This document shows, in pieces, positions 24,654-61,423 of a stretch of DNA of 64,000 bases. This DNA comes from Escherichia phage ECP2301: sequence record OR880646.1; one strand, written 5' to 3'. Under the pieces are notes generated by a model. It had not been told where the DNA came from. It did no database searches and saw only the letters and a list, made by a program, of their open reading frames with translations. Numbering within the stretch: position 1 is the stretch's first letter; each line of letters starts with the position of its first letter. The translations under genes and the position numbers were made by a program.

Positions 24654-24737
24654 TTTATTCTCCTTTGTTTGTGTAAGATAATACTATCACAAAGGAACCA
24701 TACTGTAAACAACTTTGTGCAATCTTTGGAAAATAAA

Positions 24738-24762
24738 AAAGGACTCCCGAAGGAGTCCTCAA
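24738..24762 (-). terminator. Intrinsic terminator
   Basis: Minus strand ggactcc-UUCG-ggagtcc followed by TTTTTTATTTT. Confidence 0.8.
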
Positions 24763-24763
24763 C

Positions 24764-24940
24764 TTATGCTTTCTGCTTACCAAAACGAGAAGCATCATCT
24801 CGAAGAACCGCACGTGCTCGGCGCATGATCTTCTCAACAGTTTGATTGATACGAGAGTTCGACCCACGCTTGTAGCCAGCGCGTTTAGAATCACCAACTT
24901 TCTTTTCAACTGCTTTCTTTGCTTTAGCTTGTTTTGCCAT
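24764..24940 (-). CDS. Small highly basic protein (about 58 aa), function unknown
   Basis: MAKQAKAKKAVEKKVGDSKRAGYKRG...; start placed at internal ATG with AAGAG RBS; terminator directly downstream. Confidence 0.5.
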   Translation of the reverse strand: MAKQAKAKKAVEKKVGDSKRAGYKRGSNSRINQTVEKIMRRARAVLRDDASRFGKQKA

Positions 24941-24982
24941 TATAAATTCTCTTTTAAATGAAAATGCAGGACTTATTGGCAT

Positions 24983-25338
24983 TGCCTGCGCAAGCCCTCA
25001 AGGGGAACATAGGTTTTTGAATATTTAACGACCAGGATAACCATAAACCCGTCATCATACCTTATAGCTCTTATCTGTTGCACACCGTTAGCTTAAAGGT
25101 TCCGGGTTCGATTTCTCGAGGATAAGATATATACTGATGGATATATAGGCCTTGAGGCGTACTCCCGATTGGCCATCACCTCGGGGTAGCATGCACTTGC
25201 CGCTATAAGAATAACATTCAAGAGGTACACCGTAAAACTGCCGGGGTCTTAAAACTATAATGATTCGCAAATCATTAATCAGACAGTTCGACGGCTCCTC
25301 GTTTTAACTTCACACTAAGGCAGTGACTCTCCAATAAA
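24983..25338. other. G+C-rich ORF-free island (candidate structured RNA or DNA element)
   Basis: About 355 bp with no convincing ORF on either strand in an otherwise tightly packed region; visibly higher G+C; perfect 8-bp hairpin 25258-25277; long-range complementary segments. Confidence 0.45.
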
Positions 25339-25587
25339 TTACTTCAGTGTTACCACAAAGTGACGAACTGCTTTTCGTGCAGCAGAAGCCAGAGGCTTAG
25401 CATATTTAAGTTCATCTTTTTCCTGAAGCTCAGCAGCTAATGCAGTTTGAGCAGGATTCAGATGTTTGAAATAACGCAGGATTTCAAGAGCTTCGGCTTC
25501 AACATCAATAGATGCGCCATAGTTTTCGTGACCATTATTCCATGCGTTTCGTTGCAGTTCAAGAGCGTGTTGTAATTGTTTAATCAT
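25339..25587 (-). CDS. rIII: rIII lysis-inhibition accessory protein
   Basis: 82 aa, T4 rIII length; position immediately upstream of gene 31. Confidence 0.8.
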   Translation of the reverse strand: MIKQLQHALELQRNAWNNGHENYGASIDVEAEALEILRYFKHLNPAQTALAAELQEKDELKYAKPLASAARKAVRHFVVTLK

Positions 25588-25734
25588 TTAAAAATTCTCG
25601 TTAGAGATTAAAACTCGGTAGTCACGTTCTTCTGAATTTCATCTTCTTTCGACAGATCTCTCAGTTGTAGACTACCACATAGAATTGTTCGGTTAACTTA
25701 TTATTCCGACACCCAATTCATATTATTATTTATA

Positions 25735-26070
25735 TCACTTATAAAGACACGGAATAGCTTTATAGTGACAGGTAACGAATTTTTGTTTAATTTCTTTTGG
25801 CTGCTTAAGACCCAGAGCTACAAAAGGATGCGGAACGTTTCGAATTTGACCAACTGGAAGAGAAGTCAAATCACCAACTTCACAGAAACCTTCAGGAACA
25901 TCAGGACCAACAGAGTGAACTACACACAGTTCAGGAACTTCACCTTGAACACGTTTACCGATAATAAGTCCTGATTCTGTAACTTCTTCATCACCGGCTT
26001 GTGCAGGTTCAGAAACTAAAATAACATATTCACCGACAGCACGAATTGGTAGCTGTTGTACTTCAGACAT
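25735..26070 (-). CDS. 31: Co-chaperonin gp31 (GroES analogue)
   Basis: 111 aa; T4 gp31 length; mobile-loop-like segment. Confidence 0.9.
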
Positions 26071-55849: not shown

Positions 55850-55932
55850 AGACCTTCCCCTTATGTTTCTGTTTGCGATTAGATTCTTTAAACGCTTTCT
55901 TCTTATCCTTATGAACAGAAGCTTTATTAAAA

Positions 55933-56151
55933 TTATGTTTTGCGACTAAATTGTTCATAGTGTTGAATTACCTCTCTCAAACATTTGCATGTGAATGAAA
56001 ACTTTTTAGCTACACCACATTCAAATATATGTTCTCTTAAATCACGTGTATCAGTATATCCCATCTCAACGATAAAATGCCGTATTAGATTTTTATCTTT
56101 ATCATTGAGAGAATTAAAATAATCGGATTTTGAATTAATTTCCCTGGCCAA
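55933..56151 (-). CDS. Hypothetical protein
   Basis: 72 aa ORF. Confidence 0.5.
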   Translation of the reverse strand: MAREINSKSDYFNSLNDKDKNLIRHFIVEMGYTDTRDLREHIFECGVAKKFSFTCKCLREVIQHYEQFSRKT

Positions 56152-57864: not shown

Positions 57865-57889
57865 TTTCTAATCTCCGTAATTCTGTATC

Positions 57890-57962
57890 AGTAGTTGATA
57901 GTTGTATAGTACCACAGTATGCTTTGGTTGTAAACCGTTTTGTGAAAAAATTTTTGAAATAA
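57890..57962 (-). promoter_or_regulatory. T4-type early promoter upstream of motA
   Basis: Minus strand GGTTTACAACC ... ACTGTGGTACTATACAACT preceded by A/T-rich UP region. Confidence 0.7.
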
Positions 57963-57965
57963 AAA

Positions 57966-57990
57966 AGGGAGAGCCTCAGCTCTCCCTAAA
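57966..57990 (-). terminator. Intrinsic terminator
   Basis: gggagagc-ctca-gctctccc hairpin followed on minus strand by TTTTTATTT. Confidence 0.7.
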
Positions 57991-57991
57991 A

Positions 57992-58141
57992 TTACTGCAT
58001 GACTGTGATAACTGTCATGATAACACGTTGAATTCCGAACGCAAGAAGACCTCCTGCTACAGCAGGAACAACACCTAAACCCGCCAGTAAAATGCCACCG
58101 GATACTAATGCAGCGCTTGTAATACCTATGAATGGACTCAT
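57992..58141 (-). CDS. Small Gly-rich hydrophobic membrane peptide (about 49 aa)
   Basis: Hand-translated MSPFIGITSAALVSGGILLAGLGVVPAVAGGLLAFGIQRV...; start overlaps gene 52 stop (ATGA). Confidence 0.45.
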   Translation of the reverse strand: MSPFIGITSAALVSGGILLAGLGVVPAVAGGLLAFGIQRVIMTVITVMQ

Positions 58142-60861: not shown

Positions 60862-61080
60862 TCATTTTACACCATTCCAAATTGTTTCAACCACAGATTT
60901 TAAGCCATTTTGATGAATGTCCATTCCGACAACCGCCATCAAATAAATTCCAACTACAACTGAACCTAAGGCAAAAATCAGCATGAAAATGAATAAAGCC
61001 GGAAAAATATTATCGAAAAACCATTCAATAAATGTAAAAGCACTGCGTTTACGCTTCATATTTTCCTCACATAAATCCAA
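60862..61080 (-). CDS. Hypothetical membrane protein
   Basis: 72 aa ORF with hydrophobic segment. Confidence 0.5.
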   Translation of the reverse strand: MDLCEENMKRKRSAFTFIEWFFDNIFPALFIFMLIFALGSVVVGIYLMAVVGMDIHQNGLKSVVETIWNGVK

Positions 61081-61315
61081 AGTAAGCGTTTAATACATCA
61101 ATCATTAAAACGATTGGGAATATACTCAAAACTACTAGTATTATAACTACATTCCATATAGCTTTAACAATCTTTTTCATTTTCTGTTCCTCCGTAGTTG
61201 ATAGTGTAATAATACCACAGAGGAACAGTCTTGTAAACAACTTTTTTAAAAATATTCGTAATAAATGTGAATACCAACTACTACCGCTGAAACTTGCGCA
61301 ACCCACCACGCACAA
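61067..61315 (-). CDS. Hypothetical membrane protein
   Basis: 82 aa ORF with two hydrophobic segments. Confidence 0.5.
   Translation of the reverse strand: MCVVGCASFSGSSWYSHLLRIFLKKLFTRLFLCGIITLSTTEEQKMKKIVKAIWNVVIILVVLSIFPIVLMIDVLNAYFGFM
61195..61260 (-). promoter_or_regulatory. T4-type early promoter
   Basis: Minus strand GTTTACAAG ... cTGTGGTATTATtaca. Confidence 0.6.
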
Positions 61316-61423
61316 GCAATAAGCACAGAATTCAAAATTTTCATAATAACCTCATTACAAAAGTAAATATTAAACAAATTAATGGAATACTAACTAACCA
61401 AACAAAACACCACCACAATGAAC

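Follow-up and report, generated by a model that had tools for sequence, protein, structure and literature searches.

The purine (RF00167) and lysine (RF00168) riboswitches are built on a junction closed by a helix P1, in which two hairpins are locked together by a covarying Watson-Crick kissing loop; their helices vary, their joining strands stay constant, and they lie in leaders or between cistrons on the sense strand. These properties are shared by an element located at positions 25060-25210 (minus strand) of a 64,000-nucleotide stretch of Escherichia phage ECP2301 (OR880646.1; the whole stretch is hereafter called the window), in the spacer between gene rIII and a homolog of gene 30.9. Unlike these riboswitches, the element matches no covariance model, no bacterial members of it were found, and it has neither a conserved expression platform nor a downstream gene shared by all lineages. 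The hairpin (RF00173), four-way twister-sister (RF02681) and VS ribozymes are of comparable size and also combine a junction and tertiary loop contacts with a conserved core, and such ribozymes are frequently associated with phage or mobile DNA. The element differs from them in having neither a model match nor their signature core sequences.

Two further systems have been described in T4-type phages themselves. T4 rnaC (species 1, 139 nt) and rnaD (species 2, 119 nt), which the T4 record lists as small, stable RNAs, resemble the element in being phage RNAs of about 120-140 nt encoded on the strand of the neighbouring genes. They are part of the tRNA cluster, and rnaC has a tRNA-like arm at its end, whereas the element follows rIII and is absent from T4. 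A kinship to rnaC/rnaD was rejected, as the best score of our covariance model of the element (R1) in the T4 tRNA region, with filters off, was 8.1 bits and did not fall on either RNA. PeSL cassettes are composite promoter-terminator motifs. Like the element, they are short modules without coding function that occur where T4-like genomes are variable, and they have been linked to modular shuffling (PMC2839356, PMC4122927); neither of the two papers mentions rIII or 30.9. Unlike a PeSL, the element is a 151-nt multi-helix RNA with covariation, and a sigma-70 scan found no promoter-like site in or beside it.

Comparison of the homologs shows that the minus strand of 25060-25210 specifies what is, as judged from sequence, a compactly folded and selectively maintained RNA domain of 151 nt. 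An earlier, sequence-only reading of this locus had listed a structured non-coding RNA among the candidates for the island at 24983-25338, and this proposal is now strongly supported by covariation, by an asymmetry of G·U pairs between the strands and by the lack of a conserved open reading frame (ORF). Two alignments carry the evidence: A3, a sequence-only MAFFT alignment of 19 distinct variants, and A6, a covariance-model-fitted alignment of 37 copies (24 distinct sequences). RNAalifold predicted 42 pairs on A3, 18 of them with compensatory changes; once the kissing loop is included, 98.8% of the cells are paired and 21 of the 47 pairs show compensatory changes. In controls on A3, slid partners gave 1-5 compensatory pairs, and the observed values were reached in none of 500 shuffles. 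The A6 alignment agrees with this picture.

On A3, compensatory changes affect 4/7 pairs of P5, 3/4 of P5a and 1/5 of P6, and in P3 they affect 4 of 12 pairs on the MAFFT alignment and 6 of 12 on the covariance-model alignment. The inner pairs of P1 covary in A6 (AU 13, GC 9, UA 1, GU 1). The kissing loop surfaced in a mutual-information scan, among the top signals outside the nested structure; it is fully paired in all 19 sequences, with compensatory changes at three of its six pairs (CG 13/UA 6, GC 15/AU 2/UA 2 and GC 17/AU 2). Its two loops read CAAUGA and UCAUUG in phages Cronus and EcS1, and CUAUGG and CCAUAG in sequence L063. Two other candidate pairings were discarded: UGCAUGC/GUGUGCA, which would link the 5' joining strand to the 3' domain, cannot form in full in phage Cronus (A2, by eye), and AAGG/CCUU, between J3/2 and the P6 loop, shows no covariation in A3.

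In the predicted fold, to which R1 assigns 170.6 bits at 25066-25204 (minus strand), the 5' strand of the closing helix P1, UCUUAUAGC (25202-25210), pairs with the 3' strand, GCUAUAAGG (25060-25068). P1 has 9 bp here and, read by eye, 4-10 bp with lineage-specific sequence elsewhere. P1, P2-P3, P4 and P5 meet in a four-way junction with zero unpaired linker bases. P2 is a helix of 3 bp between GGC (25199-25201) and 25148-25150, separated from P3 by a large internal loop that contains the near-invariant joining strand AAGUGCAU (25191-25198); AAG-GCAU is invariant in 19/19 A3 sequences. The P3 hairpin (25157-25190; 5' strand 25179-25190, 3' strand 25157-25172) carries a bulged A and a bulged C. 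Its loop L3, UGAUGG (25173-25178), forms the 6-bp kissing loop with L4, CCAUCA (25135-25140), the loop of the P4 hairpin (25128-25147), thereby joining P3 and P4. The P5 domain (25069-25127) begins with P5 itself (25121-25127 with 25069-25075), which opens into a three-way junction with P5a (25108-25119), a hairpin with a GAAA loop (GAAA or GUAA in most homologs), and P6 (25103-25107 with 25082-25087; 15-nt loop at 25088-25102). This junction is closed by the invariant joining strand GCAACA (25076-25081), and GCUAACGGUG-GCAACAGAU is invariant in 19/19 sequences of A3.

The strand can be read from the wobble pairs. When the nested pairs are read on the minus strand they include 54 G·U cells, at 11 pair positions, against a single A·C, which is what a G·U would become on the opposite strand. 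The functional molecule therefore appears to be single-stranded and of minus sense, that is, mRNA sense, and the minus strand is the coding strand of all the genes around the island. G·T pairs form in single-stranded DNA too; that the molecule is RNA we infer from the direction of transcription, the tetraloop preference and the kissing loop.

The element appears to represent a new family of phage-encoded structured RNA, absent from Rfam. None of the 4227 covariance models of Rfam 15 matched anywhere in the window at gathering thresholds, and Rfam scans of 951 nt and 181 nt gave nothing over the core of the element at E <= 10, the latter yielding only chance C-box-like matches in the 3' flank. 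ARAGORN found no tRNA or tmRNA gene in the window. A tRNA-like reading suggested by GGTTCGATT on the plus strand was rejected on that result and on the strand test, which places the RNA on the minus strand. Literature searches by topic, gene name and sequence string, which did not extend to a catalogue of 10,006 viral RNA candidates (PMC10690425), found no description of the element. Among the GenBank records inspected, not one annotates an RNA here, and in several of them short 'hypothetical proteins' are called over the element; FN868251, a 2010-era entry covering rIII to 30.4 of phage LZ9, includes it without annotation.

The comparison with T4 explains why the element may have been overlooked. 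T4 has the same gene order and an ORF-free rIII-30.9 spacer of 244 bp; the spacer of the window (24941-25338, 398 bp) is longer because it carries about 153 additional bases, aligned at ~25059-25213, and this indel coincides with the ends of P1. The insertion relative to T4 that had been suspected from sequence alone is thus borne out by alignment, and the impression that T4 has no such element holds for the G+C-rich core, though not for the flanks, which T4 shares. It seems that the element escaped notice in such well-studied phages because the reference phage T4 is without it.

Outside T4 the element is common. Many Tequatrovirus genomes match the region at 99.7% identity, and phage Ge15 matches the island at 100%. 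Searched by itself, the extra segment matches 407 phage records at 80-100% identity, compared with 987 records that match the flanking region. Carriers belong to Tequatrovirus, Moonvirus, Jiaodavirus, Marfavirus, Karamvirus and Roskildevirus, and include phages JS98 and EcS1. Each genome has one copy, as does the window according to R1, and in every T4-like case examined the element lies between rIII and 30.9, on the same strand as both. Its 139-nt core shows 82-96% identity across genera, whereas rIII shows 74-80% and gp31 71-80%. In OY979424.1 (Klebsiella phage vB_Ko_K41P2), only 32 nt of the element are matched, at 164363-164394 and 93.8% identity; they may be what is left of a degraded copy, or a piece of the element in some other setting.

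One copy occurs outside the T4-like phages. In the Grimontviridae phage PKM.Lu.22.1 (76 kb) it is flanked on one side by a gene without an assigned function and on the other by a sigma-factor gene (phrog_1740), and a six-frame tblastx of its whole genome against the 64-kb window found nothing shared besides the element. A linked protein partner was looked for in the same comparison, and none emerged beyond the RNA itself. No match was found in 5,426 complete Escherichia coli genomes or 72,556 plasmids, and a pattern scan of 185,579 species genomes gave only five matches, all rejected by the covariance model; the collection scans relied on exact patterns, which do not reach remote relatives. 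A metagenome scan returned only more T4-like copies, flanked by rIII and 30.9.

In the T4-like phages the element is most likely transcribed within the rIII-30.9 message, in the 3' untranslated region of rIII, because no promoter-like site was found between rIII and the element and no terminator-like one until after 30.9. The promoter scan covers the sigma-70 type only. The T4 late-promoter consensus was searched separately; TATAAATA, at 25727-25734 (minus strand) upstream of rIII, is a consensus match only, and the window holds 12 such matches against 9 expected by chance. No terminator-like site is found between the element and 30.9, and the only strong one, an intrinsic terminator at 24739-24760 (minus strand; a 9-bp stem with 5 G-C pairs, then a T run), follows 30.9 and is the end of the transcription unit that holds the element. 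In the window and in Jiaodavirus, 119-135 nt separate the rIII stop codon from the element. It begins within 11-22 nt of the upstream stop codon in Cronus, PS49, myPSH1140, Merlin and PKM.Lu.22.1, too close for a promoter to fit between them. The PKM.Lu.22.1 copy is the only one with a terminator of its own, a strong intrinsic one (AGCCCCTCttcgGAGGGGTT followed by TTCTTTC; 1433-1452 of L006, minus strand) located about 45 nt after the element and just before the sigma-factor gene; the only promoter-like match for this copy would start inside P1. The element thus does not have the build of an independent sRNA gene, which would carry both a promoter and a terminator.

We tentatively favour, as the most plausible single account, that the element is an autonomous, partner-binding RNA module. 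The fold itself appears to be the functional unit, independent of its neighbours, because it is closed by P1, its position and neighbours vary, it was transferred alone to an unrelated phage, T4 lacks it exactly between the ends of P1, and its unpaired strands are extremely conserved. A fold this elaborate very likely has a specific molecular partner or activity. As a self-contained module, it would act through its three-dimensional shape and not through coding, simple base-pairing or exact neighbours. In an Enterobacterales host it would bind a specific partner, which may be a protein of the host or of its defences, a second RNA or a small molecule, and could serve as an accessory RNA for host takeover or counter-defence, acting either on the transcript or after being processed from it. 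The element would have been lost from T4 and many relatives; since these phages are without it, it would be dispensable under laboratory conditions. Its patchy presence within Tequatrovirus fits an accessory role.

Several observations weigh against this account. The binding of a partner and the action in trans are inferred. T4 manages without the element, and the copies in T4-like phages come with neither a promoter nor a terminator of their own, which would suit a purely cis role as well. The divergence of the homologs is moderate (74-100% identity), and many of the invariant positions may reflect this limited divergence rather than constraint. P2 is almost invariant, its only variation being a one-sided C-to-U change that keeps a G·U pair; P2 is thus unsupported by covariation, because a compensatory change is never seen there. 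Single-sequence folding is unremarkable (z = -0.6 and -1.2 for the strands), so that only the comparative data are informative for the fold.

A riboswitch-like aptamer acting in cis, whose fold would sense a metabolite or an ion and control read-through or translation of the next gene, is unlikely, although much of the architecture speaks for it. The P1-closed multi-helix junction, the kissing loop and the near-invariant joining strands are as in the purine and lysine aptamers, and the fold is aptamer-like and covaries (98.8% paired; 21/47 pairs compensatory). The element is always upstream of the next gene and co-oriented with it; in PKM.Lu.22.1 a terminator lies about 45 nt downstream, ahead of the sigma-factor gene, and gene 30.9 is itself unusually conserved. 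What chiefly weakens this reading is the lack of both a conserved expression platform and a downstream gene common to the lineages. Distance and sequence to the next gene depend on the lineage, and no conserved platform overlaps P1: what follows P1 is a second spacer module (module B), a hairpin or a terminator, and the next start codon is from about 90 to more than 180 nt away. The gene that follows is 30.9 in the T4-like phages but an unrelated one, for a sigma factor, in PKM.Lu.22.1, and T4 retains 30.9 and its leader without the element. The scans of E. coli and of species genomes found no bacterial homolog, whereas, to our knowledge, the known phage riboswitches all belong to bacterial classes.

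It is a little harder still to see the element as a stability or processing device in cis, a barrier or an entry site for host RNases or T4 RegB that would set the half-life of the rIII or 30.9 message. Its intercistronic position, without a promoter or terminator of its own, would suit such a function, which would also tolerate shifts within the spacer, and in several lineages the element starts just 2-6 nt behind the upstream stop codon. Simple hairpins would suffice for this purpose; a barrier would need nothing like a four-way junction with a kissing loop and some 65 invariant bases, and the lone transfer to an unrelated phage, beside different genes, is hard to explain.

We consider it improbable that the rIII-30.9 transcript is processed by the element as a new class of catalytic RNA, self-cleaving or otherwise. 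Size, four-way junction, loop-loop contact, invariant junction bases, context independence and patchy distribution do resemble those of the hairpin, twister-sister and VS ribozymes. Against this, no Rfam ribozyme matches even at E <= 10, no candidate cleavage site can be named from the sequence, nothing demands processing at this position, and T4 does without the element.

A feature acting at the level of DNA has very little to recommend it. The spacer is an indel hot spot among Tequatrovirus genomes, which fall into many coverage classes here, its modules change order between genera, and the indel relative to T4 is sharp-ended at P1, as might be expected of a mobile-element relic, a PeSL-like recombination cassette or a site where a protein binds DNA. 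The compensatory changes and the 54:1 ratio of G·U to A·C, however, point to a single-stranded molecule of minus sense, which disfavours the cis-acting DNA site proposed in the sequence-only reading. The relic proposed there fares no better: the element is the best-conserved sequence nearby and evolves by compensatory changes, and it is not decaying, because it is more conserved than the neighbouring genes. There is no promoter-like site inside it, it is single-copy in each genome, and it has neither terminal repeats beyond P1 nor an associated transposase or endonuclease.

Finally, a small protein-coding gene or frameshifted pseudogene, for which a 60-aa TTG-started ORF, a 45-aa GTG-started ORF on the minus strand and the 34-38-aa proteins annotated in some GenBank records might be invoked, is refuted for all practical purposes by the 24 distinct homologs, in which no frame of either strand is free of stops in more than one sequence, the lengths of the indels are not divisible by three, and variable sites are spread 24/22/20 over the three codon phases without periodicity. 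Because the frames are interrupted and lack codon periodicity, the short 'hypothetical proteins' annotated here are taken to be spurious, and the examination of the homologs uncovered no conserved or frame-restored ORF.

Upstream of the element lies rIII (25339-25587, minus strand; phrog_1457, E = 4.7e-44, with T4 annotation), preceded by the gp31 gene (25735-26070, minus strand). Downstream is the 30.9 homolog (24764-24940, minus strand; phrog_1427), which encodes a very basic protein of 58 aa; its start is most likely the ATG at 24938-24940, which gives 58 aa as in T4 gp30.9. This protein is unusually conserved between Tequatrovirus and Jiaodavirus (93% amino acid identity over 44 residues, about 90% at the nucleotide level), compared with 69-79% for rIII/gp31, and it has no match in Pfam, NCBIfam or the PDB. 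A weak Rfam match to the Rhizobiales sRNA Atu_C8 at 24725-24808 (minus strand; 31.4 bits against a gathering score of 50) consists of the intrinsic terminator and the 3' end of 30.9, and was judged to be a chance resemblance.

The description of the island as free of ORFs and rich in G+C proved accurate. No ATG-started ORF of at least 50 aa occurs on either strand of 24983-25338, and only one gap of this kind in the window is larger. G+C makes up 43.8% of the island, whereas the window averages 35.9%, and only 1.8% of 356-nt windows are as rich; the core at 25060-25210 reaches 47%. Other stretches without an ATG-started ORF of at least 50 aa on either strand are 61060-61423 (364 nt), 55850-56134 (285 nt) and 57865-58137 (273 nt), none of which has an Rfam match at the gathering threshold.

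The two flanks of the element within the spacer are shared with T4. The segment just downstream of the rIII stop codon (25211-25338, minus strand) is nearly unchanged in T4, and a long irregular hairpin is predicted for it; its single G/A difference from T4 would keep pairing (U·G against U-A) on the minus strand only. The perfect 8-bp hairpin (taatgatt-cgca-aatcatta) to which the sequence-only reading had drawn attention is present at 25258-25277 and would cap this structure, but it is shared with T4, lies outside the conserved element and is incidental to it; the window contains 30 perfect 8-bp hairpins, against 10.7 +/- 3.3 in shuffles. On the other side, the 5' leader of 30.9 (24941-25059, minus strand) contains the hairpin CCCCUUGAGGG at 24996-25006 and a stem GCAGG/CCUGC (24966-24989) followed by AUUUUCAUUU, and the sigma-70 scan found no promoter-like site in it. 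Complementary segments, ccctcaagg at 24995-25003 and ccttgagg at 25150-25157, had also been noted. They are indeed present, but a single pair of complementary 8-mers is roughly what chance would give in some 400 nt (400^2/2/4^8, or about 1, by our own arithmetic), and the complementarity is not kept elsewhere: the corresponding segments in Marfavirus are CCUUAUGG and CCUUGAGG. This pairing, CCUCAAGG/CCUUGAGG, was rejected as not conserved.

Two other conserved modules were observed in these spacers. The first, GUAUGAUG..GGUUAUC..UAAA..AAAAC, is found at 25012-25058 (minus strand) of the window, at ~2640-2720 of L002 and at ~1410-1480 of L004. It follows the element in the window, in the T4-type spacer and in Cronus but precedes it in Jiaodavirus and Marfavirus; the AUGAUGA within it is the source of chance C-box matches in Rfam. 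The second is a conserved structured motif of about 63 nt in the gp31-rIII spacer (25615-25677, minus strand), also found in L002 (2414-2476), L004 (1344-1389), L007 (1414-1476), L008 and L009 (1368-1430 in both) and L011 (6459-6521). Its closing stem covaries (GGUAGUC/GACUACC, GGGAGC/GCUCCC, GGUGGAC/GUCCACC, GGCGA/UCGCC), it has an inner hairpin and the invariant strands UACAAC and AAGAACGUG, and 8 of 16 pairs are compensatory in 7 sequences; it has no Rfam match. It precedes rIII in T4 and Tequatrovirus, but in Jiaodavirus, Marfavirus, Karamvirus, Moonvirus and Cronus it precedes 30.9. It looks like a relocatable 5'-leader element.

Our results indicate the presence, in T4-like phages and in one unrelated phage, of a structured RNA element that is probably transcribed with the genes around it. 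It is possible, though doubtful, that it is the founding member of a functional RNA class found only in phages, be it a new ligand-sensing aptamer, a catalytic RNA or a decoy that neutralises a host factor or a defence of Enterobacterales. The existence of carriers and non-carriers within one genus, together with the clean ends of the indel, makes its function directly testable. Proof that it acts as a riboswitch, as a ribozyme or as a decoy against host defences would mean a new class of RNA and a further layer in the conflict between phages and their hosts.

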